Shown piece after piece: positions 2,638 through 55,610 of a DNA stretch of 64,000 nucleotides. The position numbers and the translations under genes were made by a program. The DNA lies in the NCBI GenBank assembly GCA_976551045.1, contig CDPCPM010000736.1, positions 434,001-498,000 on the forward strand. Reading direction: 5' to 3'. Origin of the DNA: Glaucostegus cemiculus. Taxonomy: Eukaryota. Under the pieces are notes generated by a model. That model did no database searches and had not been told where the DNA came from. It saw nothing but the letters and a program-made list of their open reading frames with translations. Each line of letters opens with the position of its first letter. Within the stretch, counting starts at the first letter, position 1.

Positions 2638-2795
2638 TTAGATCACATTGTTCCTATTGACGATTCCATGAGACTCCCGGAGACGGATGAGGAAAACTGT
2701 TACAATGTTGATCACAACAAATATTGCAAGTTTCAATCCCATTTCAACAACCTGCCAACGCAAGTCCCTTCCACTGCTTTCTGTTGTGTTCCTGC
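2638..2795 (-). CDS. Gene A stalk/TM/cytoplasmic exon: (R)RNTTESSGRDLRWQVVEMGLKLAIFVVINIVTVFLIRLRESHGIVNRNNVI*
   Basis: Acceptor ttctcaacag|GC. Hydrophobic stretch with Lys near its N-terminal end, short tail with no Tyr motif. Clearly paralogous to exon 18516-18697. Confidence 0.85.
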
Positions 2796-3962
2796 CTGTT
2801 GAGAATAATGAAATCAAATTCACCAATGACTTTTCTACGGACTTTCTATGACCTTCCAGTATCGTGGCCCTGGTTGTTCCTTGTTTCTTTCAAAATAAAG
2901 ACAAATACAAACACCAATGACATGGGAGGCAGCGGCGCCTCTTGTTGAGCTGCTGCGCCAGAGCGCCAGCAGCGTGGGTTCTACCCTGACTGTCGGTGTG
3001 GAGTCTGCATTTTCTCCCCGATTATGGAAATCTAAAACAACAACAGGAAAATGCCGGAAATACTCAATAGGACGATGCTCATCTGCGTCGTGGACCCTTC
3101 GTCAGAAATGAAAAGGAGACAAATGAGGCTTCTAAGTCTGCAGGGAGGGTGGGGCAGTGGGGAGTAACGTGATAGAGTAAAACTGGGTGACCATGGGATT
3201 TAAGCCATAAACAAGGTTGTCCGGTCAACGGGTGAACATAAGAACATAAGAAACAGGAGCAGGAGGAGGCCATCTGGCCGGTCGAGCCTGCTCCGCCATT
3301 GATTAGATCACGGCTAATGCGGCCGTGGACTCAGCTGCACCAACCTGCCTTAATTCCCCTACTATGCTAAAATCTATCCATCTGTTGACTTAAATATATT
3401 TAATGGGGTAGCCTCCACTGCTTCCCTGGGCAGAGAAGTCAACATATTCACTAGAAAAAGCAGTTACTCCTCAGCTGTGTCCTTAATCTACTTCCCTGAA
3501 TGTTTGGTCTATGTCCCTTAGTTCTGGTCTCACCTGCCAGTGGAACCAACATTCCTGTCTCTATCTTATATACCCTTTTCATAATTGTATATGTTCCTAT
3601 AAGATGTCCACTCATTCTTCTGAATTCCAGCAACTATAGTCCCAGGAGACACAATCTCTCACAAGTGAATCCCCTCATTCCCGAAATCAACGCGGTGAAC
3701 CTCCTCTGCACCGCCTACAAAGATAGTATATCTTTTCTCAAACAAGGAGACCGGAACTGCACGCAGTACTCTAGGCGCGGCCTCGCCAGTACCCGATACA
3801 GTTGCAGCATAATCACCCTGCTCTTAAATTCAATTCCCGTAGCAATGAAGGCCGATGGGAACAGTTAGAGAGCGAGTACATGGACAAAAGAATAAAAGGG
3901 TTACGAGATGCAGAGCAGGAGGACTGGCCCAGCAGGTCAGAGTGGGCAGGTTGTAGAGAGTC

Positions 3963-4015
<53 letters not shown>

Positions 4016-4751
4016 GAGAGAGAGAAGTAGAAGGGGTGGGGGGGGGGTGTGGGAAGCTGAGCTAATGTTACAGATAGATGACTGGTACAGACCGGGAACC
4101 CTGTTACAGTGTGTGTTTCCTCCCGGGTGTTCCAGTTTCCTCTCGCATCTCATTAACGTGCAACTTGGTATGTTAATTGACAACTGTCAATTATCACTTT
4201 GGGTGTTGCGGAATTAATGAGAACGTGGTGAGAGTAGGCTGCAGGATGAATTAATGGAGGAAGGTTTGTTCTTTGAGCCGGAATAGCCTCGATGGGCCAA
4301 ATGGCTTCCTTCTATGTTATGTAGAAACATGGGACTTTGCCTTGAGTTTGTCTGCTGAGCCTTTGCAAAGCAGAATAACGTGGTACCTTTTCCCCATTAA
4401 ATAGTATTTTTACGTCCACCATTTTACTACTTTCCACTGCAATTAAACACCACCCATCTTTTGTTCAGGAACATGAAGCGATTATGACATTTTAATTGAC
4501 AAGTGGACGTTTTATTTGTTAATAAATAAAGACTAGATATTTTGAAAGCTTTTTAGAATGTCCACTCAATTTATTGTTGGTGTATTGAATACAATAAAGC
4601 AATTTACTCTCTATCAAAGTTGTAATGGCGATGTTGCTGTATTGATTATTTCATCTCGTGGTCATTTATTGTCCAAAGGCGCATTTGGCAGTGGAATGTC
4701 TTGAGGTGCACATCGTTCAACCTCTGTCTGTCCATCTATCTATACGTCTTT

Positions 4752-4820
<69 letters not shown>

Positions 4821-7800
4821 AAGCACTCTGCTTTCACCACAAACTTCCACAGAATTGGTTGAACCGTTAATATTGCCCTTGGCCTATTGATTTCTCGATC
4901 AACGGTCTGTGGAGAACCGTGTACTTGAGTTCTGCTGATTTACTTGTTTGAAATTATAGACGACATCTCTGCCACAGAAAGGTAATTTAGTCTAATCTTC
5001 GACCACTCACATATTGTTTGGGTATAAGATTGACCGCAGGGGGACGTGTGTTAGAACGTCCACAATGTGTCAGAACGGCCCAAAATGTTGCGCCGACATA
5101 GCTAATCCCGCCTACTAACAGAATGCCCATATTCTTCCATATTGCTCTCATTCATGTGCCCATCCAAGCCCCTCTTAAAACCCCCCAATGAAATTGCCTC
5201 CACTACCTTATCAAGCACCGCACTCCAGGCATCCACCTGCGTTTTTGTAGAATGCCTCTCTATCTAACTGAAGAAGCGTTTGCCACATTATATTCTCAGC
5301 ATATTTTATGTACAGCGAGTCATTAAAATATTTCAACTGATGATAAAGATTTTCCTATTATTGCATCGTTTTATTCTTCATTTCCCCTTGTACGCAACAA
5401 CCACCGGATCTGTCTATCCACAGGATTTAATTGCACTTTGTACACAAGAGGATTGAACGACAGATACAAATGGAACAAATTTACCTAATGTTCACCCCTA
5501 AATATGATGTACCATGTAACAGCTGATTACAGCGTTTAATTCCAGAAGTATTTAACTCCCTGAATCTAAGTTCCCCAGCTGCCGTGATCTACCGTTTTAC
5601 TGTGGATCAATCGCCTTGGAAAACTAGCCCACAAATAACAACTATCATGATTGTTTTAATGCTGTTTTCTCGGTATCTTTCCCACCAATTCATGGTTTGG
5701 AATTGCGATTCCTAACGTCCTAGCAGGAGGTTATAGCTTCTGAAAGTGACCATCACTTTGGTATGGATTGTTACAAATTCAGCAGCCAAGTGCATTAATA
5801 ACCCTTAGAAATAGCTTTCGGTATTTGAAGTGGCGCTCAAATCTTTACTAATGCCAGAAGGACTCTGCAGATTCCTACAGTAAGCACTGTCTTCTTCAGG
5901 ATCTATTTCCCTGCATTATTATGATGGGTGTTGCATTTTAACCTAAAGCCTAACTAAAAGCGCACCGTTTGGCAACATTGACATAACTTCCAAGATTACA
6001 AACCGTTATCTTTAATGAGAGTAAAATCGGGTCACACATTGGGCGATTCCGTCAGTTGCCTGGTTGAAAAGGCCGGGTTAAACACCGCCTCCCCACCGCA
6101 CCCCCCCCCCCCCGAGAAATCCTCCAATTATGAGAATGACAGTTTCTATTTACTTGTGGTTGTCAGTCGAACGATAAACTCGTCCGTTTGAACGTCTCGC
6201 TCATTTTGTGAACAGCAATAATCGCCTTTAAACATTAATTATGTTCCGAATATCTGTAGCTTAAATTTAAATTGACTTAAGTGTTTTTTCCTGCTGTGTG
6301 GCAGCTGATGATGGTGGGTAGATCTCTGGGGTAATGCAAACTTACGGATGACTGTGACTACTGTCCCGTTTCCAAAATATTTTCCTTCCATGGTAGTATC
6401 CACTTGGCAGTAATACCTTCCTGTATCGGTCACTTTGAGGTCGGTGATTTCGATAGCTGCACCTGGAATGCCCTGTGAACTGTTTTCCAGAACGCGACCA
6501 TTGTACCGGTTGCACGTGTTGAGCACGGAACGGTCTTCATCGTCTTTATACCAACTGACGGCTGCAATCGCTCTGCCCCCTGAATAGTTTGTATTCCGGC
6601 TGAACGTACAGGTAAGGTGCACTGTTTCCCCTTCGGTAACGGTGATCCGCTGCGGCGATTGCATGATGGTTTCTCGGACGCCAACGGTTTCTGTAACCAG
6701 AAATAATTACAATTTTAACTCCGGAGTTTGTTGGCTGCGTTCATCATGAAGCATCACAGCATTGCGCCATAACGGTCAGTACTCAATTAAATATGAACAA
6801 AGCTAAAGAGCTGACTTTCGCAAGTCACGGCGGTGTGTCAGTCTGCAATAGGAGAGGAGTAAACGGCAAGCAATTGCTCCAAACCGTCTTACTGCTATAA
6901 GCAATACCTGACCTTTTGAATGCATCCAATACCATTCGGGTTTAAACTCTAGCGGGTAATAATTTATGCGCTCCTATCCACAGATAAAATAAACTCGGCT
7001 GATGAGTGCACTCTATTGTTTATGTAGGTTTGTATTGTTGTTAGGGATGAAAGCAGAGAGGAGAGGACGAACCTGTTACCATTCACAGAACGGCCCTAAC
7101 TTTGGGAAACATGAGTTTATGGTTGTTGCTGGGGCATATTTTCATGTTATTGTTATCCTTGTCAACACCCTGCTTGGAAAGAATTTGGAGGCAGAAGCCC
7201 TAACCCCATCTACAAAAGCGCCCGGATGAGCGTTTCATGTATGGTGTCCTGCGGGGATGGAGCCCAGAGACAGAACGGCTGCAAATGTCTTTGGAAAAGG
7301 AACACTGGTGGTTGTCCTTTCCACCTCAGCGGTGATCTGATGGGGCGAATTCTGATGACGGTGGGTACAACGTTGAATCTGAAGGTAAAACCATGTAAAC
7401 TTACGTGTGACTATGACTTCTGTCCCACTTCCAAGATACTTTCCGTTCATGAAAATATCCATTTGGCAGTAATACCTTCCTGTATCGTTCATTCTGAGGT
7501 GAATGATTTCGATAGATGAACTTTGAATATCGAGAACTTTGTTTTGAACAACGCGACCACTATACCCGCTGCACGTGTTGCAAACGGAACGGTTTTCCAC
7601 GTCTTTGTACCAGCTCAATGCCCCAATCACACTATCCCCCGTGTGGGTTGTAATCCGGCTGTAAGTACAGTTTAGCTGCACCGTCCCTCCTTCAGTAACG
7701 GTGACCTGCTGCGGCGATTGGCTGATTGTTACTGGGACTCCAACGGTTCCTGCAACCAGAAATAACCTCAATTTCAACGCCAGGGTTTGGTGGATGTGAG

Positions 7801-10800
7801 CATCATGAAGCATCAAAGCATTGCGCATAATGTTCTACATTCAGTCAAACAGGCAAGGGGATAAATCGTTGGGTTTCACGAGCTCGGTTAGTCTGACAGT
7901 CTTCAACAGAAGAAGAGTAAAGTGTGACTGGTAATCCTATGCCTTCCCATCTTCCATCAACATTACTCAGTTGAAGTAGTTAGAGACAGAAGGACTAACC
8001 ACACCTAAAAAGTGCCTCCATGAATAAAACAACAACATAGAATCAGAATCAGAATCAGTTTTATTGTCACAACCATATACATACATAGTATGCATAGGAG
8101 CGAGATACCATCCTCCTCAGGTGCTCGTCCCATTAAATAACAACCAACAGAGACACACAGTCACACTTAACAGAATAAACATTAAAAAATATTAAACATT
8201 AAAAACTACGGAAGTTAAAATTAAATTAATACGCAGATTAAATTAAAAATGTCCGGTAAATAAATAATAGTTATTAAAGTGAACGGGCTGATGGCGGGCG
8301 TTTAAAGTGCTGGTGCATTTCTGTGCACCTAGCACCTCCTAGTGTTAACAAGGAGGATGGAGGGATGAGAGAGTATGCAGTTCTGATGGCTTGCGGAAAG
8401 AAGCTATTGTTCAGCCTGGTCGTTCTTGCCCTGATACATTTAAGCCTCCTCCCCAATGGCAAAATTGTAAAGAGGTGATGGGAGGGGTGAGAAGGGTCGG
8501 CCATTATGCTTTTGGTCTTCCTCACACAACGGTCTTTGTATATGTCTGCGAGGGATGGAAGCGAGACACCTATGGTCCTCTCCGCAGCCCTAACTATCCA
8601 TTGGAGGGACTTCCGCCCAGCAGCTGAGCAGCTTCCAAACCAAACAGTGATACATTGAGTTAGGATGCTCTCAATGGTCCCTCTTTAGAAGGTTTTCATA
8701 ACGGAGGGATGGGGGTACGCTTTCCTCAGTCTCCGCAGGAAGTAGAGGCGTTTCTGAGCTTTCCTCGTGAGGGCCGTAATGTTAGTGGACCAGGTCAGGT
8801 AGTCGGTGATGTGCACCCCCAGGAACTTGGTGCTGCGTACTTGTTCCACAGCAGACCCGTTGATGGTCAGCGGGGCGTGCACATGGTGACCCCTCCTAAA
8901 ATCCACTATCATCTCCTTGGTTTTATCCACATTCAAGGAGAGGTTGTTGTCACAGCACCACACGGCTAGTTGTTTCACCTCCTCTCTGTAGTCCGACTCA
9001 TCGTCAGGTGTGGTTTGAAATGCGGCAAAACATGGCCGAAGGGCCTGTATTGTGCTGTATTGCTCTATGGTTCTATGGTTCTATAACATGCTGGAGGAAC
9101 TCAGCCCTTTTCTCCACGGATGCTGCCTGGCCTGCGGAGTTCCTCCAGCATCTGGATTCCAGCATCTGTAGTCCTTTGTTTCTCAAGTGTCTCGATGAAC
9201 AATTTAGGTATCGTAATCTGCGGGGATGGGACCCAGATAGAGGATGATTGAAAATATATCTGGAAAACGGACAGTTGTGGTTGCCTTTCTACCTCGGCGT
9301 GAATCTGATGGGGCGAATTCTGATGACGGCGGGTACTGCGTTGAATCTGAAGGTAAAATCATGTAAACTTACGTGTGACTCTGACTTCTGTCCCACTTCC
9401 AAGATACTTTCCGTCCATGAAAATATCCACTTGGCAGTAATACCTTCCTGTATCGTTCATTCTGAGGTGAATGATTTCGATAGATGAACTTTGAATACCG
9501 AGAACTTCGTTTTGCAGAACGCGACCACTATACCCGCTGCACGTGTTGCAAACAGAACGGTTTTCCACGTCTTTGTACCAGCTCAATGCCCCAATCACAC
9601 TATCCCCCGTGTGGGCAGTCCTCCGGCTGTAAGTACAGTTTAGCTGCACCGTCCCTCCTTCAGTAACGGTGACCTGCTGCGGCGATTGGCTGATTGTTAC
9701 TGGGACGCCAACAGTTCCTGCAACCAGAAATAATCATAATTTCAACAGCACAGTTTGGTGGATGTTTCCATCATTAAATGTCATTGTGCCATAACTTTCT
9801 GCACTCAGTTAAACATGGATGGACATAAATGACTGCGTTTTCCAAGCCGGGTTACTGTGATCGTCTTCTATAGGACAATGGTTGTTGCTTTTTTAACCTC
9901 TGTATGGCCACATACAGCAACATAAACCATCCAAGTTACGTAATTTATTTGAGATAAATAACGAGAGTTTCTTTAATGAGGGCAAAGGCGGCTGTAATAA
10001 AACATGTCGTTAATTCCCCTACTTCGTACTTATTCGCAGCGATTCATAGCCCACCATTGATCCATGCATAAAACACTTTGAAGCTAATTATCTTTCACAC
10101 TGGATTTCAACTTGCTGTCCAGGAAATGACAGTCCACTCACGGGGCAGTTATTGAGAAGCGGCCAGTTGATACCCCGTGTCCCGAACTCCAGGTATTTGC
10201 TTGATCTCACTAACTGAAAGCAAGTCCTGACGATTTTCTTAAACCACAGTGCAAGCACATGCTTTAACTTTGACTTGTTAAGATATTTTGTGAAACAAGA
10301 AGCGATTGCACGCTTTGCAATTTTACTATTAATTTGTTACATTTTGGCGCTAAAGCAACTATATCTCCACAGGTTTGTGTGTTGATTAGTTAAATTGTCC
10401 TCTGGGGCAGGGAGTGATAGAGGGAGGAACTTTATGTGTATTGCTATGAATACATTTATTCCTTGTTGTTAACTTTCTATAACACCTTTAGTTGTTACAA
10501 AAGCGCGATTAAATACAGGAGCAGATTGCCACTGAGTCAGTCTAAACAACACCTTACACCACAGCAATTTAAAGTACTCGAATGGTTGAGGACTCAGTTC
10601 CAAGTACGGTATTTTTGCGTCAAGTGCACGCCGACCATTTTATTAGCAAGAGTGAAAATCCGCAATCAACTCACTGAACTTACTTCAAGATAGTCGCCTC
10701 TGAACTTACCCGGAGGAACCAGTTTGTGCATATCTCTTTTTAATGTGTGTCTCTGTTCTGTTCTCATGAAAGTATTTAACTCTTTTTGAAAATGCTGGAT

Positions 10801-11300
10801 GCCCAGACCAGGCTGTTTCTAATTATTGTCAATCAAAGAATAAACAACTGGTTCCCAGCAGTTTATGATAGTCAATTGGGCATTTGGTGTCCATGATGTG
10901 GAATTATNNNNNNNNNNNNNNNNNNNNNNNNNNNNNNNNNNNNNNNNNNNNNNNNNNNNNNNNNNNNNNNNNNNNNNNNNNNNNNNNNNNNNNNNNNNNN
11001 NNNNNNNNNNNNNNNNNNNNNNNNNNNNNNNNNNNNNNNNNNNNNNNNNNNNNNNNNNNNNNNNNNNNNNNNNNNNNNNNNNNNNNNNNNNNNNNNNNNN
11101 NNNNNNNNNNNNNNNNNNNNNNNNNNNNNNNNNNNNNNNNNNNNNNNNNNNNNNNNNNNNNNNNNNNNNNNTGCGCGCTCGCGCTCGCGCGTATGCGTGC
11201 ATGAGCGCGCGCACACCCTTGTCCCCATATATGAAACTCCGTGTCTGGATTACTTACCAGAGAAAAACAGCGCTAACCAAACGACCATATTCCACAACAT
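2638..11300 (-). CDS. Gene A (spliced span): NKp30/NCR3-like VJ-type IgSF receptor; leader + three tandem V exons + Lys-containing TM/short tail (predicted activating)
   Basis: Exons 11300-11258, 9717-9373, 7749-7405, 6690-6346 and 2795-2638 all have canonical AG/GT ends with phase-1 junctions and join into an open frame. Confidence 0.85.
3235..3856 (-). mobile_element. CR1-type LINE 3' fragment
   Basis: Translation LEFRRMSGHLIGTYTIMK..PLAGETRTKGH is typical of the CR1 ORF2 C-terminus; (catAAGAA)n tail. Confidence 0.8.
3963..4025. repeat. (GA)n microsatellite
   Basis: Direct reading. Confidence 0.95.
4755..4817. repeat. (TC)n microsatellite
   Basis: Direct reading. Confidence 0.95.
6346..6690 (-). 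CDS. Gene A V exon 3 (VJ-type Ig V-set domain)
   Basis: ctggttacag|AA ... ATCC|gtaagt; 345 nt. Motifs LTC..WYK..DTGRYYC..FGNGTVVTV, with the J-like G strand in the same exon. Confidence 0.92.
7405..7749 (-). CDS. Gene A V exon 2 (VJ-type Ig V-set domain)
   Basis: ctggttgcag|GA ... ACAC|gtaagt; 345 nt. Motifs LNC..WYK..DTGRYYC..LGSGTEVIV, extra CxxC (CNTC). Confidence 0.92.
8039..9007 (-). mobile_element. 5'-truncated Rex1/Babar-type LINE with (GATTCT)n tail, between V exons 1 and 2 of gene A
   Basis: ORF WCCDNNLSLNVDKTKEMIVDFRR..KFLGVHITDYLTWSTN..KAQKRLYFLRRL and ARTTRLNNSFFPQAIR; tail repeats at 8039-8058. Confidence 0.88.
9373..9717 (-). CDS. Gene A V exon 1 (VJ-type Ig V-set domain)
   Basis: ctggttgcag|GA ... 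ACAC|gtaagt; 345 nt. About 96% identical to exon 7405-7749 by hand count. Confidence 0.92.
10908..11171. other. Assembly gap (N run) in gene A leader-V intron
   Basis: N run. Confidence 1.
11258..11300 (-). CDS. Gene A leader (signal peptide) exon MLWNMVVWLALFFS(G)
   Basis: gaaccATG start, 43 nt, phase-1 donor TCTG|gtaagt, hydrophobic. Paralogous to 43426-43468. Confidence 0.85.
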
Positions 11301-18515: not shown

Positions 18516-18697
18516 TTATTGCCTTGTGTGGAATGTTTGCCCGTTAAGTCGTTCTGCTCTTGTAACCCCACGAGACACGCAGATGTTGGTAAAGGCAATG
18601 GTTACAATGACGGTCACCAGAAACGCTGCAAGTTTCACTCCAAGTACAATCAACTGCGATCGCCATTTACTTCCACTGCTTTCTGGTAGGGTCACGT
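18516..18697 (-). CDS. Gene B stalk/TM/cytoplasmic exon: (Y)VTLPESSGSKWRSQLIVLGVKLAAFLVTVIVTIAFTNICVSRGVTRAERLNGQTFHTRQ*
   Basis: Acceptor ctcttcgcag|AC. TM with Lys; stop at 18516; candidate AATAAA on the minus strand at 18238-18243. Confidence 0.87.
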
Positions 18698-21305
18698 CTG
18701 CGAAGAGTGAAGCAACTAAATTCACAATTCCTTTCCTGGCTTCTCTCTATTTTCAATTAATCTCGTGCATTCGAATTGCTCCCCATCATTTCCCCATAAG
18801 GGCACATATAGACCCGGTAATGGACTTTGCCGTAGATTTCATCTTGCATTGCTTTTGCAAAGCTGGATAACAGTTTATTATTCGCATTTTATAGTGAACA
18901 TACTTGTATAATTATTATTGTTGCTTTTCACCAACTGAAACATCATCTATCTTAAGCTTGTAAACATTAAACGATTATGACTTCTGGCTTAATTTTCAGA
19001 ATCAAGGCTAGATTTTCCCTTACTTTCTATGCAAGTTACTGTTGGAATGTTCAATACAACAGGGACAATTTGCTGTATATCATATATATGTTGCCATCCA
19101 ACATATATACTGACACTTGGGGGGCATTTGCTGTATACATGATTTCACATGCTGGGTGCTTTCATTATCCAAATGATTACTTGATAGTTTAACGTCCTGC
19201 ATTATATTCACTGACTTAAATCCATGGTTAACCTATAAATCCTTTCACAAATTCAGGCCTGTTTGCAACATTCATTCACATAGATTAATTTGATCTGTTC
19301 AGTTTGAGCTGTTACTTTCCAGTATGAATGTGAAATTTAATAATTTTTGAGGAGGAATTGAGAAATCTGGTCGGGGTATGGAACCCGCTGTCTGGAAGGA
19401 TGGTAGAGAATGAAACCCACATTGCGCTTAGCATTACGTGGATGCATATTTGAAGACCTGTAACCTGCAGGGTTGCCGAACTAGAGCTGGAAGGAAGAAT
19501 AATGTGAGCTAGTTATTCTTCCAACGACGTAAACTTAAGTAGGCTGCTGTCCTGTATCGAACATCTTCAACAATTCTGTTGTCTTATAACTCAAAAGACC
19601 TTTCTGTTTTCCTTCCAGTTACCTGTCTGCCTATCTGTATGAGGTTATCTGTCTATTTCCACCTCTCTCACACATTCTATATATCAATTTCCCTGTTTTT
19701 TTCCACCAATCTGTTTCTATCTATCTACCTCTATCTTTCTAGATCTATTGATCTAGCTATCTAAACCACCCATCTGTCTATTTATATAACTGCCTGTCCA
19801 TCCATCTCTGTATATGTTTCTATCTATCTGTCTGCCTGTCCCTGTCTATTCATTCAACCATCCATCGCCGTCCGTATATCCGTCTCTCTCTCGCGCGCTC
19901 TCGCTCTCGCTCTTTCNNNNNNNNNNNNNNNNNNNNNNNNNNNNNNNNNNNNNNNNNNNNNNNNNNNNNNNNNNNNNNNNNNNNNNNNNNNNNNNNNNNN
20001 NNNNNNNNNNNNNNNNNNNNNNNNNNNNNNNNNNNNNNNNNNNNNNNNNNNCAATTATTCATTTTCCTCACCCGGACTTACATTTAACTGTTAATATTGT
20101 TCCTGGTCCTCTGACTTTCTCGACGAATACTATTTCCACCTGGCAAAAGTATGTGCCTGAGTCGTCCCGGGTAACGTTTGTGATCGTGATGGAAGCGTTC
20201 CGGTTCCATAGGAAAGAAGCTCTATCCGCTTTCAATATTCTGCCCGAGTATCCTGTGGATGTGTTAGTTACTTCGGCACCTCCAATTCCACTCATTGCGG
20301 TTTTATACCAAATAAATGCCCCGATGCCCTCATGAGTTGTGTTGTATGTGCAGAGAAGACTGACTGTCTCTCCCTCGACGGTCTCAATGGAAGATGGTGA
20401 TTGAAACACATCAATCTTTCTAGCAGTTGCCGCTGTAAGGTAAATGCCGGTGGCAGTTTATAAATAACTCTTCACTTTGCAGTATAGCAATTATAATCAA
20501 ATAGGCATGTAAAAATTGATACCTATTTCACCAATGCCAACATTCAGGAAATTATTAAGAAGGCAAATTGCATATTAACCTCCACTACAAGAGAGTTGGA
20601 TTTCAAAACAGAGTATGGCTACAACTATTCCGGGTTCTGCTAAGACCACGCCTGTAATGATGCGCATAATTTTAGTTCCCATATCTTTTAAAGGTTATGT
20701 TAGCATTGAAAGCCACCAGAATTTTTGCGACGGTAATTCCTAAGATGAGATGGTTGCCCTGTCACGAACGGCTAGAAGGGGTAGTCCTGCACTCCTTGGT
20801 GTTTAAAAGAACGAATGGTTGGATTGACATATTTCAGATCCTAAGGCGGGGGGTGGGGGTGAGAGGGTAAATATTGAGGTATTTCCACTGGCGGGGGAGC
20901 CTCGAAAGAGGGGATGTATTTACAAGATGGTTGGGGGGGAGGGAGTTGGTGGTGGTCCTTCAGAATTGACAAACTGAGGCGTGTAGATATTTCTTCTCTA
21001 CCCGGGTGGTTGTGGAGGCTTGATCACTGGAAGTACTTAGAGAGAAGGAGGATACATTTTTGAAAGATCGGGCAACTGAGAGCAACGGGAAACTGGCTCA
21101 GAGGTGAAATGAGGCCTAGGGTAGAGGAACCTTGATGGTATCGGGACGGGCTTGAGAGGCCGAAGACCCAACTGCTGGTCCTATTTTTCTGTGTGTTTTG
21201 TATGTAATGACGTGGGCGGACGACCCTACAGCAAAGTGTTGAGAATAAAATAAATAGCTTACTTAAGAGAGACATCAATATCCAGAGATGCTGGGTGAGA
21301 TTCAT
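18516..21305 (-). CDS. NCR3: Gene B (spliced span): NKp30/NCR3-like receptor, leader-V-TM(Lys)-short tail (predicted activating)
   Basis: Three phase-1 exons give an open frame. The V segment GAEVTNTSTGYSGRI..ASFLWNRNASITITNV..YFCQVEI resembles remembered human NKp30 GKEVRNGTPEFRGRL..SRFLHDHQAELHIRDV..YVCRVEV. The symbol denotes family, not proven orthology. Confidence 0.75.
19917..20051. other. Assembly gap in gene B V-TM intron, next to degenerate (TCTA)n/(TC)n repeats
   Basis: N run. Confidence 1.
20082..20432 (-). CDS. Gene B V exon (VJ-type Ig V-set domain)
   Basis: ccttacag|CG ... AAAT|gtaagt; 351 nt. Motifs LLC..WYK..DSGTYFC..GPGTILTV; four N-glycosylation sequons (NTT, NTS, NAS, NVT). 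Confidence 0.92.
20560..21205 (+). mobile_element. Degraded CR1-type LINE 3' fragment filling most of the gene B leader-V intron
   Basis: Similarity to the CR1 3' region, including the gggcttgagaggccgaa..ctgct..tcctatt tail. Confidence 0.6.
21263..21305 (-). CDS. Gene B leader exon MNLTQHLWILMSLL(T)
   Basis: 43 nt like the other minus-strand leaders; phase-1 donor TTAA|gtaagc; continues into TATARKIDVFQSP. Confidence 0.8.
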
Positions 21306-31087: not shown

Positions 31088-31378
31088 TTAGAGATTTCTA
31101 CCTCGCAACTGCTGCACATTCACGGCCGCATAGACGACCTGCTCTCCCTTCCTTTCCCGAGCCTTCAAGGGCTCCAATACAACTGGTTTCTCACCATGAT
31201 CTTGACGGCGAAGTGCGGAGACGACAACCGCACCTTCACCCCTTTCTTCCAGTGATATCGCTCCGTCCCATGTTCCAGGCTTCACTGACTTCTGCTCAAT
31301 CTGATCCAGGGGGTAATGGCTGTCCGGCTTTCTGATGTTCAACTGAGCGTAAACTATAGATTGCGACTTGTCTCCTCC
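31088..31378 (-). CDS. Gene C terminal cytoplasmic exon GGDKSQSIVYAQLNIRKPDSHYPL...KGEQVVYAAVNVQQLRGRNL* (two ITIMs)
   Basis: Acceptor tgttatctgtttaatttaag|GGA (phase 0); 291 nt open. IVYAQL and VVYAAV fit (S/I/V/L)xYxx(I/V/L). Candidate AATAAA on the minus strand at 30699-30704. Confidence 0.85.
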   Translation of the reverse strand, partial: GGDKSQSIVYAQLNIRKPDSHYPLDQIEQKSVKPGTWDGAISLEERGEGAVVVSALRRQDHGEKPVVLEPLKARERKGEQVVYAAVNVQQLRGRNL

Positions 31379-37300: not shown

Positions 37301-40300
37301 TCAATATGTTTCCGTGAGTTGGAGATGAAGGTTTAGGGACATCAAACTTTTTTTTTTGTTAGATGTCTTTCTTTGTGGTGTTCGGTGGCTTCGCAGTTTC
37401 CTGTACCCCCTCTTGTGTGTATGTGTGTGTATCTGTGTAATATATTTATGGAACAAACAACATAGAACAGTAAGAAATAAATTATTAACTCATTAGGTTG
37501 ACTATTAGCGTTTTGTTTTACAAATATGACGGTGCTGAAAATCTGAAATGAAATCGGTAAGGAATGTACATAGACTAGGAATCCTGCCGCGAGTAACTCA
37601 TCTCCTAACATTAGGGGTTTGAGAAGATCTGGTATGTCAACAGAGACTCTTCCAAATTTCTGTAGATGTACAGTGAAGAGCATGCTGACTGGTTGCATCA
37701 CCGCCTGGTATGGAGGCTCCAATGTGAAGGATCGAAAGAGGCTGCAGAGGGTTGCAGACTCGGCCAGCTCCATCACGGGCACAACCCACCCCGCCATCTA
37801 GGACATCTTCAAGAGGCTGTTCCTCAAGAAGGGTCATTAAGGACCCTCACCATTCGGGACGTACCCACTTCTCGTTAGTAAATCGGGGAGGAGGTATAGG
37901 AGCCTGAAGACCCACACTCAATGATTTAGGAACAATTTCTTCCTCTCTGCCATCAGATTTCTGCACGGCCCATTAACACGTGAACACTATCTCTTNNNNN
38001 NNNNNNNNNNNNNNNNNNNNNNNNNNNNNNNNNNNNNNNNNNNNNNNNNNNNNNNNNNNNNNNNNNNNNNNNNNNNNNNNNNNNNNNNNNNNNNNNNNNN
38101 NNNNNNNNNNNNNNNNNNNNNNNNNNNNNTCTATTCGTCCATTTATTTATTTGTTGTAAACTATAGTAATTATTATGTCTTGGCACTGTACTGCGGCCTC
38201 AAAACAACAAGTCTCACGACATACGTCAGTGATAATAAACCTGACCATCCAGGACACAGCAGCCCGTTTGATGGGCACCCCATCCACAATCATTCACGCG
38301 CTCCACCACGGATGCACAGTAGCAGCAGTTCGTACTATCTGCAGGATGCACTGCAGCAACTCATTAAGACTATTCAGACAGCACCTTCCAAAGTCACTGC
38401 CTTCTACCAGCTGGAAGGACAAGGGCAGCAAAAACATGGGGAGCACTACTACGTGGAAGTTGCCCTGAAAACCACACACCATCTTGACTTGGAAATATAT
38501 CACTGTTCCTTCACCGTCGCTGGGTCACTGTCCTGGAACTCCCTCCCTAACAGCAGTGTGGGTCGACCCCCCACCTCAAGGACTGCAGCGGTTCAAGAAG
38601 GCAGCTCACCACCACCTTCTCCAGGACAACTAGGGATGAACAATGCGGACTCAGCCGCGAAACCCACATCCCTTGAATAAAATAAACGTTTTATTTTTCT
38701 GACAGAGTTTCATGGAATATGAGGTGTTCTTACTGGTTCAACAGTAAGGTTGAAAGCATATTGGTCTGTAACTAGATAGGGTAAAAAGGAGATTTTCGCG
38801 GATGCTACCATGGCTACAGCATTTTAGTAATGAAGAATAGCTAGGGTTATTTATTTGGGAACGGAGAAGACTGCAAAAAAAGTTTATTGAAATGTAGAAT
38901 TATCTTGGTTATACATGGGTTACACGGGGAGGGTTTATTTTCCGTAGCTTAATGAGACAAAGGCCGGGGAACGTGGTCTTAAAGTAGGTGGAAGATTAGA
39001 GGCGCGATTAGGAAAAACATTTTCTCCTGGGGCGTACAGGAGGTTTTGAGAGTGACTGTCAGGCAGGAGGGTCGAGGCAGGAGCGTCCTCAACAAACTGA
39101 GAAATGTCTGGACGTGCGCTTGAAGAGCCGCGACCTACTACCGGACTGCAAACATGGGATTAGGGTGGGAAGTTATTTTTGTAAACCGGCACTTCTAGGC
39201 CAGGGTTTTATAGGCGTTGTGTATTTTTTGTTCTATGAAATGTTTAATCATATTGTCTTACGATATGGAAGGAAGCGAAAGAAAATATGAAATGTGAAAG
39301 AACGTTTCATAAGATCAACGAATACGACAAAGAAGACGGACATTCGGGCTATCGAGTCCATGCCAGCTCTCAGAACAATCCCATCCAACCACTTACTTCG
39401 CTGTAACATATCCTCTCTCACACGCCCAATAACCTCAGCCCCTTCCCGAGGCATAATCTACAGTGACTAATTAACCTACCATGTCTTCGGGATGTCGGGG
39501 AAACCGGAGCACCCGGGAGAAATCCACGTGGTCAGAGGGAGAACGGATGAACTCCGCACAGACAGCGCTGGAGGTCAGGATTGAACCCAAAATCGCTCGA
39601 GACAGCAGCACTAACTGCTGCACCACTGTGTCTCCCTCGCTTGTCTCCCTCTGACCTTCCCTCTTCCCTCGTCTGTGCCTGGCGAGACCTTGAGTTCATC
39701 AGTTTCGCCCTGGTGAGTGTGTTTTAAAATCCCCAAGAAGAAAGCGGTCAAAGGTGGTCATGCATTGTTGCTGATCTCACGCACTTATACCGTTGTAGCA
39801 GTACCTAATGTGCTTGACCTGAAATTCCAATTCGATGCACATTTCATGCCCAATTGACAGTCACAACAAGACTGACGATTCCTCTCACAAGAAACATCCT
39901 CTGTGGACTGCTTATCTCCGCGCCTTTGTTCTGCTGCGTTTTACCCGGCGGGAAACGAATCAGATGGGAACAGTTTCACGCCTCGTCGCGTTATTCTTTG
40001 TCGGTTACCTCCATCGGAACGTGAAATCCCGCCGTGTGACGGACGTCACCGTCGGGTTCTCGGGCATAGTCCCGGGTTAAAGTTCCACCGGGTGATTACA
40101 GGCTGGGTTAGCTTGTCATTATCACTGAAGCTACAAACATCAGCCAACGATGGAAATTCCCATTGAAATACAATACCACCCCGACTCTCTATAGCTTTTT
40201 TTTTAAAAGAAAAACTGGGGGTAGGTGGTTGGGAGGATTGAATCAGGAGGTAAGATAATGTAAACTTACGCTTCACTGTGACTTCTGTCCCTTCTCCAGA

Positions 40301-43300
40301 AATCGTTTCACCGTTGAAAATGTTAATCTGGCAGTAATATCTGCCCGTTTCATTTAGTTTCAGGTCGGTGATGGTGATGGAAGTCCATGCCCACCGAAGC
40401 TCTGCAGTATAATTTTTCAGAAAGCGGCCATTGCAGTCTGCGGATGTGCTGCAAAGTGGAGTCCTTTCCTTGCCTTTGTACCAGCTGATGGCAGAAGGTG
40501 GTTTGCCTTCTGGTTGCGTTGAGTTCCATCTGAAGGAACAGTTCAGTTGAACCGAGCCACCCTCGGTAACTGTGACCCGCGGCGGCGTCTGGTTGATTGT
40601 TACTCCGGCCCCGGCAGTTCCTGTAACCAGAAACAACCTCCTTCATGACACTGTCACAATTTGGTGATTGTGCCTTCAGCAATAAACTGCGGGGGAAAAA
40701 AAAACCTTCTGCACTGGTTCAAAAAGGAAAGGACTTGCCTGCGAAGAACAGGGTAAAGATCAAGTTACCTTGACCATCTTCTATATAAGGGACACAAACA
40801 AGAGGCAATAAATCTATACTTTTAGTTTGGCTGCAAACTTTCCCTGACACACTGAGTGCCTTCAATACTATTTATCTTTAACTCGACTTTCGACTCTAGA
40901 CAAGAGTATGGTTTTGCGCTCAGTCAGCCTCTTTTCTCCGCTTTCCCATAGGGCAGAAGATACAAAAGCCTGAAAGTACGTACCACCAGACTCAAGGACA
41001 GCTTCTATCCCGGTTATAAGACTATTGAACGGTTCTCTAGTACGATAAGATGGACTCTTGACCTCACAATCTACCTCGTCATGGCCCTTGCACCTTATTG
41101 TCTACCTGCATTGCACTTTCTCTGTAGATGTTACACTTTATTCTGCATTCTGTTATTGTTTAACGTGTACTACCTCGATGCACTGTGTTAATCTGTATGA
41201 ATGGTAGAAAAAATGAACTGTTCACTTCTCCTCGGTACATATGACAATAATAAACCAATTCCAATTCCAACTGCAATTAAAGTGGTTCATGCGGATGCCT
41301 TGGGAGTGTAAAGTTATGAAACATCCACAAGCTACTTCCTTCTGCAAAGAGACCAACACCTAGAAGGCACAGATTTAAGGTAACTGCCGGCAGATTAATT
41401 CTGGAACTCATTGCCTGAAATGAAGTTGGAGACACAAATACTCACAACGTCGAAAAGTTTTCGAGATTGATAACCGGGACAGCGTTCGAGAGAGGTTGGG
41501 GAAATAACTCGTTTATGGCGGCGTGGGCAAGAAAGAACGACTAGTCCCCTTCATCATAAGCGAAGAGCTAGACAGCACAGAAACCGGCCTTTCGGCCCAC
41601 CACGTCCATGCGGACCATGAGTTACCCATCTACGTTAATTCCATACATTGGTGCCGTAAATACATACCTTTCCTTGATTACTGAAGCTAAATGGCCAGAT
41701 CGATTTTAATTCGGAATGAAAGATAAATTCTCACTTGCTCCTGCTGTCTCTGTCCCCATGGGGAGAAGTAGAGGTTTGTGATTATGCCTCTTCTTCGACG
41801 AGCAGCCACACCAACCCGGCTGCTATCTCTTACTTCGCAGCTTTCTTTTTATGTTTAACTCATTTTTTCTCCTGCTTAAAGTTAAGTATTTACTATTATC
41901 AAACTAAATCATAATATTTTATATTTCTTCATAGCATTTCACCGAGGTGTGTACACCAGCGCAGAGCCATGGGTACCACACTGAGACAGTCGCGCAGTCA
42001 GTAGAACTGCTGTCTCACAGCTACGGCGAAGCGGGTTTGACCGTGACCTCCGCAGCTGTCTGTGCGGAGTTCGCATGTTCTCCCACATCCCAAGGACGTT
42101 CAGGGAGGTTATTTGTCCGATAATTTGCTCCTAGTGGGGTTGGGCGGCAGCAGTGTCAGGGAGAGTTGATGGGCGTGTTAAAGAGAATAGGTTGAGATGA
42201 AATAAGAGGGAGAATGGGACTGGCGAGTATGAACTGAGAGACGGGATGTATATCCTGCCTTCCTCGTATGTGGGAAGAAACAATATGAAGCCAGCAAGCC
42301 TTTCAATCATGATTTCAATTTGCCGGGAAATATAGCAATAAATGTAAATATACATATATCCTTGAAACAGTTGCTCATGGAAGAGCATGGTTTGTGGAGA
42401 GAGATTTTTCTCCAATTTTTTTCGCTGAATTGACGTCATCGTTGACACTTGCGAGCTAGACTGGACGAGTCAGTATGTGCACGTTTCTCTTCATTTTATG
42501 TTTCGGTAGGGATGCCGAGTCACTATGGAAGTCTTTGTGACAATGTTGGATGCGCAACGCCAGTTGTTTTCAACAAAGAACAAGGCCGTGCGGCTACCTG
42601 GGGTGGTTGCTGTCGAAAGGTTTGCTGGCTTCATACATTTGTAGTCACATAGAAAGAAGCCAGCATCTACATTCACTTATCAGCTCACAGCACCAGTTCC
42701 ATTCTCCCTTTGCAGGTAATAGATATTTAATCACTAAAAGGAGCAGGAAGGTGCGTGAAGAGGCTCTGAAAAGCCCAGANNNNNNNNNNNNNNNNNNNNN
42801 NNNNNNNNNNNNNNNNNNNNNNNNNNNNNNNNNNNNNNNNNNNNNNNNNNNNNNNNNNNNNNNNNNNNNNNNNNNNNNNNNNNNNNNNNNNNNNNNNNNN
42901 NNNNNNNNNNNNNNNNNNNNNNNNNNNNNNNNNNNNNNNNNNNNNNNNNNNNNNNNNNNNNNNNNNNNNNNNNNNNNNNNNNNNNNNNNNNNNNNNNNNN
43001 NNNNNNNNNNNNNNNNNNNNNNNNNNNNNNNNNNNNNNNNNNNNNNNNNNNNNNNNNNNNNNNNNNNNNNNNNNNNNNNNNNNNNNNNNNNNNNNNNNNN
43101 NNNNNNNNNNNNNNNNNNNNNNNNNNNNNNNNNNNNNNNNNNNNNNNNNNNNNNNNNNNNNNNNNNNNNNNNNNNNNNNNNNNNNNNNNNNNNNNNNNNN
43201 NNNNNNNNNNNNNNNNNNNNNNNNNNNNNNNNNNNNNNNNNNNNNNNNNNNNNNNNNNNNNNNNNNNNNNNNNNNNNNNNNNNNNNNNNNNNNNNNNNNN

Positions 43301-43468
43301 NNNNNNNNNNNNNNNNNNNNNNNNNNNNNNNNNNNNNNNNNNNNNNNNNNNNNNNNNNNNNNNNNNNNNNNNNNNNNTGTCTCTGTGTGTGTCGGTCTAT
43401 GTGAATCCCTATGTGTATTACTTACCAGCCAACAACAGCGATACCCAAACGACCACCTCGCTCAGCAT
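31088..43468 (-). CDS. Gene C (spliced span): NKp30-like VJ IgSF inhibitory receptor with two ITIMs
   Basis: Leader 43468-43426, V 40620-40270, TM 37020-36883, micro-exon(s) 36279-36221 and/or 35922-35891/35896, terminal exon 31378-31088. Confidence 0.82.
31490..35580 (-). mobile_element. Near-full-length degraded CR1 LINE (ORF1 esterase, ORF2 endonuclease + RT) in the last intron of gene C
   Basis: Ordered fragments IGDSLVRGTDRR, VCCLPG..VVHTGIND (SGNH ORF1), CFYLNVRSI, VGDFNFP (endonuclease), DSQHGF..SCLTNL, TSGVLQGSVL, LYKTLVRPTLEYCVQ (RT); frameshifted. Confidence 0.9.
33650..33866 (-). mobile_element. Young V-SINE inserted into the CR1
   Basis: Near-identical to 48512-48735; interrupts CR1 ORF2. 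Confidence 0.8.
35765..35860 (-). mobile_element. Penelope-derived repeat with mutated minimal hammerhead motif
   Basis: Minus strand CTGGTGA-AGGATCTTCGGCCC-GAAA-TGTTAGC, then gctgcctgacctgctgagt. Confidence 0.6.
35891..35922 (-). CDS. Gene C candidate cytoplasmic micro-exon (32 nt, or 27 nt with the internal donor at 35895)
   Basis: tattatag|ATAAAAGATCCGGAACTGAAGACGTCG|GTAGG|gtaagt; both donor choices can restore phase 0 for the last exon. Confidence 0.55.
36221..36279 (-). CDS. Gene C candidate cytoplasmic exon (G)SERSRCRGLQAGEERRNYK
   Basis: ttagcttacag|GC ... ACAAG|gtactt; 59 nt, phase 1 to 0, open, purine-rich. Confidence 0.55.
36590..36843 (+). mobile_element. LF-SINE-like element (related copies near 21430-21660, 49150-49330, 52790-53030)
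   Basis: tggttcactaacgctcttcggtgaaggaaat..cacatcccatgaa pattern, recognised from memory. Confidence 0.5.
36883..37020 (-). CDS. Gene C stalk/TM exon (R)HEDPGVILDPIHSNVYPVGFLALPAVVLMLAPVVIIYILRRCRSP(G)
   Basis: ttcttggcag|GG ... CCAG|gtaatt; 138 nt phase 1-1. Uncharged TM followed by the basic stop-transfer RRCR. Confidence 0.88.
37610..38240 (+). mobile_element. Rex1/Babar-type LINE 3' fragment spanning an assembly gap (37996-38129)
   Basis: NFCRCTVKSMLTGCITAWYG..DRKRLQRV. Confidence 0.8.
38240..38685 (+). mobile_element. CR1/L2-clade LINE 3' fragment
   Basis: TIQDTAARLMGTPS..HALHH..TVAAVRTICRMHCSNS, WNSLP; tail cccacatcccttgaataaaataaa. Confidence 0.75.
39310..39632 (-). mobile_element. 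V-SINE copy
   Basis: ggaaaccggagcacccgggagaaa core on the plus strand. Confidence 0.7.
40270..40620 (-). CDS. Gene C V exon (VJ-type Ig V-set domain)
   Basis: ctggttacag|GA ... AAGC|gtaagt; 351 nt. Motifs LNC..WYK..ETGRYYC..SGEGTEVTV; extra Cys pair CSTSADC. Confidence 0.92.
40925..41270 (+). mobile_element. Rex1/Babar-type LINE 3' end
   Basis: GRRYKSLKVRTTRLKDSFYP followed by a 3' UTR and (CCAATT)n tail. Confidence 0.75.
42780..43377. other. Assembly gap (598 N) in gene C leader-V intron
   Basis: N run. Confidence 1.
43426..43468 (-). CDS. Gene C leader exon MLSEVVVWVSLLLA(G)
   Basis: gaaccATG start, 43 nt, donor GCTG|gtaagt, preceded by an acceptor-like ttttatacag. Confidence 0.85.
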
Positions 43469-49339: not shown

Positions 49340-49860
49340 GTCATAGTGTCATGGGATCGTACGGCACAGAAAAGGGCCCTTCGGCCAACTACGTCCATGC
49401 TGACATTTTGTCCATCTACACTAATCATATTTTCCCGCGTTGGGACCTATGTCTTGCCTATTCAGGTGTCTATCTAAATGTTTGTTAAAGGTAGTGCTTG
49501 CATCTAGTTCCACCACCTCCTCTGGCTGCGAGTTCCAGATATCAACCACTCTCTGTGTAAAACACATGTCCTTCAGCTCCTCACCTCTTAATCTATGTCC
49601 TTTTGTTTTCGATACCACTGCCAAGGGGATGAGATGCTGACTATCTTTCTTGTCTATGTCTCTTATAAATTTATACACCTCTTTCAGGTCACCCCTCAGC
49701 CGCTTTCGTTCCAAGGAAAGCAAGTCCAGCCTATACAATTTCTTCTCATATCTAATGCCCTCCAATCCAGGTGACATCACAGTGAATCGCCTCTGAACTC
49801 TCTCCAGCGCAACCACATCCTTCCTACAGTGTGGCGACCTCTGCACACAGTACGCCAAGT
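49340..49860 (-). mobile_element. CR1 LINE 3' fragment
   Basis: RKDVVALERVQRRFT..SLERKRLRGDLKEVYK..FTQRVVDIWNS. Confidence 0.85.
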
Positions 49861-53281: not shown

Positions 53282-53339
53282 ATGGACGGTGTTCACAAGT
53301 GGACGCTTTGGACCTTCGTGGCAAAACTTATATCCGCCG
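53282..53339 (+). CDS. Gene D leader exon MDGVHKWTLWTFVAKLISA(G)
   Basis: aaATGG start, 58 nt, phase-1 donor GCCG|gtgagt matching the V acceptor phase. Confidence 0.75.
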
Positions 53340-54556
53340 GTGAGTCACTCTCTTGTAATCTTTACCATGTAATTCCAAATATATTGTAACTTTGAAAGTG
53401 TGTGGATATCTCAGGCTGTTTCCTAATGCAGAGGAGTACAGGAATTGAAATGTCATGTTATAACTGTTCTAGTTTTAGACTCCACTAGTTTAGGGGGGGA
53501 AAGAGACTGTGATTATACTCCTCATGATTTTATCAACCTTTTTAGGTGCCCCTACACTCCTGGGGGGAAAAAAAGTCGCAGCCTATCCAAGCCCTCCCTA
53601 AAACTCAAGCCCTCCAGTCCCCGCAGTTGAAGGGCTTGAGTATAAGCAGATTACCCAATGTATTACCGTTTTCCTCGGTCACAGTGTTGAGCCAGTTGAG
53701 ATTCTGGTCAACACTGAGCTCCTGGTTAACACTTGGAGTAAAAGGTAGACGGAGGAATTCGGCGATGATGTTTTGAATAAAAAGAGGCACAAAACAGTGA
53801 TGATAAAACCACACATTTTATAATTTGGGTTATAGCTTCGCCGGAGGGGATCTCTGTCAATCCTGTAGGAAGTCACTGATGGAGAAAGGCTTTCCCTGTA
53901 CACTCTAGGAGTGCTGACTGAGATCAAAGTGGCCCAGACTCCGAGCTCGGTCACTGCAACGCAAGAAGGGTCGGTGCAGCTGACCTGCACTTTGGAGGTG
54001 ATCTCATCCTCCGTCGGGAAGCTTGGCTGGAGACGGGCCTCGCTGGACCTGGAGATAAATGACCAGATTCCGTTCTATCGGGGCTGCGTGGTCAGATCTG
54101 GTCAGAAGTTATTTGCCCAGAAGACGGCGTTCATTGAAATCAACGATTTGACGAAATTCGACTCGGATCTTTACGTCTGCGAGGTGGAGGTTCCGGGGGT
54201 TGGAAAGGGAAAAGGGAATGGGACAGCACTTAATGTAATCGACAGTAAGTAGAAAACATTGGAGATGACTGTAAGAGTGTAACAGCGCTGTGACTATTAA
54301 TGTGTGATAGGCTTTGCGATTTGTCTGCGTTAGCTTGAAAGCACACTGCTCACTGTCCGTCTCCTGAGGTGAAAGGAATGGGGTCGGAGTGAAACATTAA
54401 CGCCACCCAATTGATGGTTGCCTCGCTTCCCGCAAGTGAAACTCGAATAATATTACATTCATTCAGGACTCTGCTGCCGTTCAGCATAAGGCGCGGCACA
54501 GTGGCACAGCTGTCACTCTCAGTTACCGGGTTCGATCCTGACCTCCGGTTCTGTCT

Positions 54557-54589
<33 letters not shown>

Positions 54590-55610
54590 GAGTCGGCACG
54601 TTCACCCTGTGACCACCACCCCCACCCCGGGTGCCCCGGTTTCCTCCCACATCCCAAACGACGTGAGGGTTGATAGGTTAATTGCCCGCTCTACATTGTC
54701 CCCTGTTTGTGTGTGCGTGCCTTACAGAACCCCGGGGAAGAGTTGATGGGAATGTGGGGAGAATTAAAAGGGAGATCGTGTGAATGGGTAGCACGGTCTC
54801 GGTGGGCCGAGGGGCCTGTTGCCGTGCCGTATGCCTCCACGGCACTGAAACACGTCTAAAATGTCTCCAGATGCGCAATTGCGGTGCCTTGTGTAACCTA
54901 TAGCATAGGGAGTGGGATTTAACTTCATAACTCGATACCAAGGTCAGGACTGAGCCCAGGTCTCTGGCGCTGTGAGGCAGCGGTTCTACTGCGCTGGCCG
55001 TGTGTAGTATTGGTGGAAATGAATCTTGGCACTGTCAGCGCAAGGAATGTCCAGCGATTCTCTCCTGCCAGTAGACAGTACAAGAATGTTTAACTGTACT
55101 GATGGGAAGGCGGTCTGCATTGGAATTGCCACAGGCGCTTCACAACATCCATGATCTCTATTAAATGGCGGAGCAGACTCCAGAGGCTTCCACTTCCGAT
55201 GCTCGCGTGAATGTTAAAAGATACGTGAAATAAGGTGTGTTTGCAATCTTACCCCAGAGCAGGAAACCGAGTGTTCTCCCGGAAACAAAGGTGACTTCTT
55301 CCCTTTGCTGGTGGGAGCCGTTTGTTTGTCCATCCTTGCGAAAATTCTCCAGATATCTCGGCTATACTGCCAGGTTAAAGGTAATTTCTATTTTTCCGCC
55401 TTTCCGAATTGTTCTGACAGTCCGTGATTTTTTTCTAACCTTGTGATTTTAATTTTCCTTTGAATATAGCGCGCCTGGAGCTCAAGGGGTATGTATAATG
55501 TGTTTGCAGCTATTTTCACTTCAGCAGATGCAGAATTTCACTGCGTTGAATTTGATATTTTTCTTGCAGGTCGCATAGGGCAACTCGAGGGAAAACACAT
55601 GAATTATACT
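53282..55610 (+). CDS. NCR3: Gene D (spliced span, 3' end unresolved): NKp30/NCR3-like receptor with stalk cysteine
   Basis: Leader 53282-53339, V 53909-54244, TM 55258-55380, candidate tail 55570-55610. The F-G region YVCEVEVPGVGKGKGNGT closely matches remembered NKp30 YVCRVEVLGLGVGTGNGT. The symbol denotes family only. Confidence 0.75.
53909..54244 (+). CDS. Gene D V exon (VJ-type Ig V-set domain)
   Basis: cactctag|GA ... GACA|gtaagt; 336 nt. Motifs LTC..LGW..DSDLYVC..GNGTALNV. Confidence 0.92.
54490..54845 (+). mobile_element. V-SINE copy with internal (TG)n in gene D V-TM intron
   Basis: ggcacagtggcacag head, ccccgggtgccccggtttcctcccacatccc core. Confidence 0.75.
55258..55380 (+). CDS. 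Gene D stalk/TM exon (K)QETECSPGNKGDFFPLLVGAVCLSILAKILQISRLYCQVK(G)
   Basis: ttaccccag|AG ... AAAG|gtaatt; 123 nt phase 1-1, open, hydrophobic core. Confidence 0.75.
55570..55610 (+). CDS. Gene D candidate cytoplasmic exon (G)RIGQLEGKHMNYT; read-through adds VREQIS*
   Basis: Strong acceptor tttttcttgcag|GT and possible donor ACT|gtaagg. The downstream exon was not identified. Confidence 0.5.

Follow-up and report, generated by a model that had tools for sequence, protein, structure and literature searches.

Lysine-bearing and ITIM-bearing members of a predicted NKp30 (NCR3) gene cluster with MHC class III neighbours in Glaucostegus cemiculus

The DNA considered here is a 64 kb stretch (hereafter, the window) of the 2.85 Gb genome assembly of Glaucostegus cemiculus (GCA_976551045.1), which corresponds to positions 434,001-498,000 of contig CDPCPM010000736.1 (C736) and holds genes for putative receptors of the NKp30 (NCR3) type. 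A six-frame scan combined with Pfam identified six V-set exons in the window, all free of stop codons and all above the curated Pfam cut-off. Each is bounded by AG and GT splice ends, has phase 1-1 and carries its GxGT strand just before the donor. In the 64 kb there are two loose matches to recombination signal sequences (RSS), neither of which adjoins a V exon. All six exons therefore have V and J strands joined in one exon (VJ), with no RSS and no C domain, which is the arrangement of NCR3/NKp30. The exons were assembled into four gene models, A, B and C on the minus strand and D on the plus strand, and the stretches of N in the window fall within introns of these models. An earlier note on this DNA had described six intact, non-rearranging, single-exon VJ domains in four genes of a probable cartilaginous fish; the feature is real and was correctly described.

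Gene A opens with a 43-nt leader exon (11258..11300), which has a phase 1 GTAAGT donor and matches the leaders of ray homologs. It is followed by three V exons, the first at 9373..9717 (GSGT), the second at 7405..7749 and the third at 6346..6690 (GNGT). All three were delimited by the Pfam V-set match and their splice ends, and the second is 93% identical to the first at the amino acid level, reflecting an internal duplication. The last exon (2638..2795) encodes the stalk, the transmembrane (TM) segment and a 15-residue tail without Tyr. With TM positions counted, here and below, in the most hydrophobic 21-residue window of each TM exon, gene A has Glu at position 2 and Lys at position 6, and both residues are kept in 4/4 A-type ray homolog records (two of which are isoforms of one gene). 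If every exon is used, the model comprises 411 amino acids. We read the three V exons as one gene because the A-type gene of Mobula birostris has both a two-V isoform, V-V-TM(Lys), and a one-V isoform, the latter named NCR3-like; splicing of gene A would yield proteins with one, two or three V domains.

Gene C has a different plan. Its leader exon (43426..43468) matches Mobula model P0002, and its V exon (40270..40620, GEGT), a Pfam V-set match, is 62% identical to Mobula XP_062903896.1. The stalk/TM exon (36883..37020) encodes no charged residue in its best 21-residue window, and the last exon (31088..31378) carries two immunoreceptor tyrosine-based inhibitory motifs (ITIMs), IVYAQL and VVYAAV. 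Since the TM exon ends in phase 1 and the ITIM exon starts in phase 0, a linker exon is needed. A strict scan missed it, and homology recovered it: comparison of the introns of three ITIM genes revealed a 32-nt exon (35891..35922, phase 1 to 0) that restores the frame and has been kept in two ITIM paralogs; the matching residues are present in the Mobula hypostoma model. The complete model has 284 amino acids, and the uncharged TM segment and two ITIMs that had been noted in separate exons are thus joined in frame. A stop-free stretch with two ITIM motifs occurs in the window only in this last exon, and in 0 of 30 shuffled sequences, the pattern having been chosen after the motifs were seen. 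There are three ITIM sites in all, of which gene C retains the first and third (the middle one is without its Tyr), while Mobula retains the second and third. The predicted fold of the V domain has a mean predicted local distance difference test score (pLDDT) of 83, and two fold searches with it returned generic V-set domains (NKp30 at Z 12.8 vs. 14.7 for the best). Decayed pieces resembling long interspersed nuclear elements, recognized by eye from open reading frames, lie on the minus strand at window positions 8,277-9,080, between the first two V exons of gene A, and at ~31,400-35,400, in the last intron of gene C.

Gene B consists of a V exon (20082..20432, GPGT), delimited by Pfam and its splice ends, and a stalk/TM/tail exon (18516..18697) with Lys at TM position 7 and a tail without Tyr. 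A candidate leader exon (21263..21305), one of several from the motif scan, brings the model to 191 amino acids. Genes A and B thus have a basic residue in the N-terminal part of the TM segment, as is characteristic of NCR3/NKp30, together with short tails lacking Tyr, just as the earlier note had it. No basic residue was found in this part of the TM segment of C, and the Lys of D lies only at position 16. Since the residue is also absent from nurse shark QTT61901.1, it marks the activating subtype and not the shark NCR3 family.

Gene D has a candidate leader exon (53282..53339) from the motif scan, weakly hydrophobic and with a consensus donor, and a V exon (53909..54244, GNGT) that encodes the most NKp30-like domain in the window and is 83% identical to sawfish XP_051899859.1. 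Its stalk/TM exon (55258..55380) encodes a stalk Cys and the Lys at position 16 of a marginal TM segment, whose hydrophobicity (1.98) is the lowest of the four genes (2.27-2.62 in the others). A candidate tail exon at 55570..55610 is defined by splice motifs, and two further candidates match sawfish model P0007: a 17-nt tail exon at 57023..57039 and a last exon at 57742..57854, the latter with a one-base shift and a provisional frame. Five options for the tail give proteins of 187-216 amino acids. The stalk Cys and TM Lys previously attributed to gene D are therefore present, but its activating status is doubtful because the Lys sits late in a marginal TM segment, and judged from its sequence D may not be an activating receptor. 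The gene may also extend past position 55610, where the earlier description ended.

The window is only part of a larger cluster. We read the whole 696.5 kb contig, with a hidden Markov model (HMM) search covering bases 34,001 onward and BLAST covering the contig in full. The HMM detected 13 V exons between 196 and 488 kb, and whole-contig BLAST added no intact one. The cluster spans ~300 kb, reaching ~240 kb beyond the left edge of the window, and comprises 13 gene units, whose exons outside the window were joined by their order and by homologs. Five units encode a TM Lys (those at 367 and 416 kb, A, B and D), six have an ITIM-type last exon (196, 261, 280, 341 and 385 kb, and C), and two have neither signature (231 and 304 kb). 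These 13 clustered units thus include members with ITIM tails and members with charged TM segments and short tails, as paired-receptor families do. The 280 kb unit has a short and highly divergent Ig-like exon (C736:280,041-280,274, plus strand; ~78 codons) whose splice sites are intact. An uncharged TM exon at 283.3 kb and an ITIM-type last exon at 288 kb come after it, and the unit is a possible inhibitory member with a truncated domain. In the ITIM paralog at C736:335,270-341,368 (plus strand), the TM, linker and tail exons are intact and the V exon is reduced to its last 45 nt.

The order of genes along the contig is PRRC2, AIF1, the V cluster, a CCN gene and a CLIC gene. PRRC2 was recognized by a BAT2_N match (E-value 1e-29) and AIF1 by a match with an E-value of 3e-24; the AIF1 and CLIC exons alone cannot separate the AIF1/AIF1L or CLIC1/4 paralogs, which gene order does. 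In the accessible part of the supplement to PMC10751288, chromosome 34 of sawfish carries CLIC1, a CCN1-like gene, ddah2, three NCR3 genes, two uncharacterised genes, AIF1 and PRRC2, and chromosome 19 of white shark carries five NCR3 genes beside AIF1 and PRRC2A; both are given there as major histocompatibility complex (MHC) chromosomes. The order on C736 is the same as that on the sawfish chromosome and in part that on the white shark chromosome, and the two uncharacterised sawfish genes are orthologs of the 304 kb (77%) and 231 kb (88%) genes. None of 38 MHC class I matches in the genome lies on C736, all being on other contigs, and the linkage rests on class III markers for that reason. Because the flanking PRRC2, AIF1, CCN and CLIC genes match the MHC class III order of sawfish, we identify the locus as NCR3 (NKp30). 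Judged by these neighbours, an expanded NCR3 cluster sits here in the MHC class III region, and the window forms its distal end; both the NKp30 identity proposed earlier and the linkage to the MHC, which had been left as a check, gain support from synteny.

Homologs were gathered by word-based searches (2, 4 and 11 proteins), from which 11 distinct elasmobranch proteins were used, a thin sampling; a stickleback protein served as outgroup, and four long non-elasmobranch multi-Ig proteins were left out. The homologs come from Mobula, Hemitrygon, Pristis, Chiloscyllium, Mustelus and nurse shark and are named NCR3-like, pIgR-like or uncharacterised. The closest named ones are ray proteins, in keeping with the cartilaginous fish origin surmised from the sequence, and ray RefSeq models share both architectures seen here, V-V-TM(Lys) and V-TM-ITIMs. 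In a 32-row tree, all cluster domains group with nurse shark NCR3 at 93/96, and the TCR-like V segments of the genome (TCR, T-cell receptor) form a separate clade. A 12-row clade with a support of 98 in the Shimodaira-Hasegawa-like approximate likelihood ratio test contains A, C, the 367, 385 and 416 kb genes and ray homologs with either kind of tail; in the word-based searches this A/C clade drew ray homologs only. The V domains A1 and A2 and those of the 367, 385 and 416 kb genes have an extra CxxC in the C'-C'' region, where C has Cx5C and A3 one extra Cys, a possible clade-specific second disulfide. Against the PDB, NKp30 is the top single-domain match for B and accounts for 4/4 matches for D; with a profile of the 13 domains, NKp30 is the best single-stretch match among those listed, below multi-domain chains. 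An Atlas search with D returned generic V-set clusters.

Outside the window there is a matched pair of opposite types: the V exon of the 416 kb gene, which has a Lys TM, is 84% identical in amino acids and 91% in nucleotides to that of the 385 kb gene, which has an uncharged TM and ITIMs. Through this pair the cluster as a whole also has the similar ectodomains typical of paired-receptor families. The pair stems from a tandem duplication on the minus strand. The first copy begins at window position 5953, which is 393 nt into the intron between the third V exon and the TM exon of gene A, covers window 1..5953 and runs on to contig position 415,951 (439,953-415,951); the second copy occupies 415,950-385,041. 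The copies, of 24-31 kb, are colinear end to end in blocks of 80-88% identity, with a junction sharp to one base. The 416 kb gene tracks the 385 kb gene in its leader, its V exon and the initial 378 nt of the intron that comes next (91.5%). At one base it then changes over to gene A, taken up 393 nt inside the V3-TM intron, with 93.7% identity in the TM exon. Across the junction, the 385 kb intron continues in alignment with the 341 kb ITIM paralog, and the A intron upstream aligns with the 367 kb Lys paralog. Because each parental intron continues into an independent paralog, the 416 kb gene is a recombinant. Unequal crossover between V-TM introns would have put the leader and V exon of the ITIM gene at 385 kb onto the Lys TM exon of A. 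The chimera is intact, and its leader, V type and Lys TM recur together in a sawfish model, so that sawfish may share the event, although its model could be a mis-join. The family would thus grow by tandem duplication, a crossover having produced one matched pair.

As to signalling, ITIMs recruit SHP-1/2, and phosphorylation of both ITIMs in the C protein would bring in these phosphatases. In the A and B proteins, the TM Lys would serve as the contact for the Asp of CD3zeta or FcRgamma, and immunoreceptor tyrosine-based activation motifs would carry the signal. Two zeta-family TM exons with Asp are present in the genome (2/3 matches above the cut-off), which we take, from their general pattern, to be CD3zeta-like and FcRgamma-like. 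A DAP10 profile had no match in the genome, although with exons this short that is no proof of absence. Complex prediction with the gene A TM exon and two copies of the FcRgamma-like TM exon scored 0.03, which gives no answer either way. In NKp30 itself, a basic TM residue pairs with Asp of CD3zeta/FcRgamma, according to the available part of PMC6514059. From gene content and motifs, we think it probable that the cluster works as a mixed activating and inhibitory receptor family on NK-like (natural killer-like) or T cells.

Several findings weigh against this reading or against parts of it. Every exon join in the models is predicted. Within the window, the V domain of C is 43-45% identical to those of A, 35% to that of B and 23% to that of D; there are thus no highly similar ectodomains of opposite type in the window, and with values of 23-45% A-D count as divergent subtypes rather than matched pairs. 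The paired logic of the KIR/LILR/NITR kind that the earlier note proposed therefore holds for the mixture of Lys-TM and ITIM genes and fails, inside the window, for matched pairs. Strict pairing, as far as the sequences tell, is confined to one gene pair outside it. The ITIM parent of that pair has a TAA codon at 385,734 in its V exon (in one assembly), so the pair may not be functional, and in the 341 kb ITIM paralog most of the V is gone. The ratio of nonsynonymous to synonymous change (dN/dS) is 0.53-0.84 in 7/7 pairs of V exons, with no sign of diversifying selection, and the faster change of the chimeric V is not significant (11 vs. 5 polarised changes, 4 ambiguous, p 0.21). On the reading that we favour, most other members of the cluster are old, divergent subtypes that likely see different ligands. 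Much of this would also suit ordinary elasmobranch NCR3 subtypes that act as co-stimulatory or co-inhibitory receptors in the manner of CD28 and PD-1, with their own B7-type ligands and no paired logic, the chimera being a neutral by-product of birth and death. Low identity between opposite types in the window, dN/dS below 1 and the stop in the 385 kb gene all fit it, as do the ITIM subtypes common to sharks too, the one-to-one sawfish orthologs of several subtypes at 77-88% and the view of NKp30 as CD28-family-like in the portion of PMC6514059 at hand. Yet one clade mixes both tail types and is expanding, and the chimeric gene is intact and has its sawfish counterpart in leader, V type and Lys TM, which leads us to regard such unpaired subtypes as an unlikely account.

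The NCR3 label has its own difficulties. Support for the whole cluster falls to 34 without one long outgroup, neither tree includes mammalian NKp30, and A1 and C have no NKp30 match in the PDB at the thresholds used, matching pIgR/antibody and TCR alpha chains instead; it is synteny and the exon plan, more than the tree, that support membership in NCR3. It could be argued from these missing matches, from the unsettled deep tree and from the ray-only homologs of the A/C clade that only D and the far-left subtypes are true NCR3, with A, B and C belonging to a separate, XMIV-like VJ family at the same locus. However, A, B and C share the exon plan and the locus, NCBI labels A-type homologs NCR3-like, the sawfish genes at this place are marked NCR3 in the part of PMC10751288 available, and one tree groups all domains at 93/96, so that we give this division very little credence. 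Still harder to credit is the suggestion that the duplication and the extra V exons are assembly artefacts from uncollapsed haplotypes: the copies differ by 12-20% and have different insertions, far beyond alleles, and Mobula shows the same multi-V architecture. Beyond the mixed receptor family that we favour lies a bolder conjecture, which we hold to be possible but doubtful: that the ray NKp30 locus is a KIR/Ly49-like paired NK complex in the MHC, where a ray-expanded clade yields activating counterparts of inhibitory members through tail swaps at the V-TM intron, with the 416/385 kb pair a birth caught in the act, the single activating NKp30 of mammals what is left of a mixed family and the cluster a candidate for the missing self-recognition NK receptors of cartilaginous fish.

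Related exons were observed elsewhere in the genome. On contig C300 (1,339,566-1,361,717; L066-L068) there is a second cluster, of three single-exon VJ domains and a fragment, that resembles the NCR3 set and has TM candidates without charge and a single possible ITIM exon; the portion of the PMC10751288 supplement that could be consulted places NCR3 of catshark at two places on its MHC chromosome. On contig C143 (7,615,418-7,620,275, minus strand; L071), a VJ exon with E-I-P-P-P in complementarity-determining region 3 (CDR3) lies near a C1-type exon, and a CD3zeta-like exon is on the same contig; a CDR3 motif of this type is the one given for chondrichthyan CD28H in the accessible part of PMC11599192. 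The TCR-like V segments that served as outgroup form an array without J strand on contig C370 (2,275,852-2,299,390, minus strand; L074-L076).

The surprise in these findings is limited, as the family, its MHC position and ITIM-bearing members are already in databases. Kinlein and colleagues reportedly described a multigene NCR3 family in shark in 2021, and the family itself is not new, as had been acknowledged at the outset. Shark NCR3 accessions MT914154-914161 are cited in the part of PMC12227049 available. Two genes on C736 are 61% and 54% identical to nurse shark QTT61901.1, a protein deposited under the name NCR3; because this protein has an uncharged TM segment and the ITIM-type motif VEYATI, an NCR3 sequence of inhibitory type was already on record, and ITIM-type motifs also occur in models from bamboo shark and Mustelus. 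Our literature search, which the main papers lay beyond, returned no paper on ITIM-bearing or paired NCR3 in cartilaginous fish, and NKp30, NCR3 and ITIM were not found in the accessible portion of the PMC3964593 supplement. The NK receptors of cartilaginous fish are poorly defined, NKp30 being among the few with clear orthologs, and a cluster of both signalling types, located physically in the MHC, offers concrete candidates for inhibitory NK or T cell receptors. The cluster yields defined constructs for ligand (B7-H6, MHC class I) and adaptor tests, and its junction, resolved to the base, illustrates how a VJ scaffold, an exon type thought to precede rearranging receptors, can gain an activating twin.

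The KIR, Ly49, LILR, SIRP and NITR families consist of clustered genes with ITIM tails or charged TM segments and frequent pseudogenes, and in KIR/Ly49-type families activating genes arise when recombination fuses the ectodomain of an inhibitory gene to an activating tail. The present cluster shares with them the clustering, both tail types, the recombinational birth of an activating gene and the pseudogenes, but differs in domain type and locus, in that most members are too divergent to form pairs and in that the tested pairs show no sign of diversifying selection. NITR have an ectodomain of a V plus an I-type domain and a non-MHC locus; set against that general description, NITR identity was rejected, as motif and HMM scans found no further Ig exon between V and TM and the neighbours are of MHC class III. 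Rearranging or germline-joined TCR/Ig was likewise rejected: no RSS lies at the V exons, V joins TM directly and the TCR-like V segments are a separate clade. The XMIV genes of Xenopus, as generally described, encode V-type receptors in MHC class III and include ITIM-bearing as well as charged-TM members, as here. Mammalian NKp30, in the portion of PMC6514059 available, likewise has one IgV domain, a basic TM residue for CD3zeta/FcRgamma and a place in MHC class III, but it is a single gene with a TM Arg and tail variants made by alternative splicing, where we find 13 units, Lys and separate ITIM genes. The CD28H/CD28HL receptors, in the part of PMC11599192 at hand, are also V-TM-tail receptors, some with ITIMs (D has E-V-P vs. 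E-I-P in CD28H), but they belong to other synteny groups, and the PDB matches of D are to NKp30 only. With the shark NCR3 family, finally, the cluster has in common the single-exon VJ domain, several divergent members and the MHC position, and it differs in its A/C clade, which includes genes with several V exons, a chimeric pair and a long tail that holds two ITIMs; to that family the locus adds a clade that is likely ray-expanded and has both tail types, multi-V members and the base-resolved chimeric birth of a matched pair.

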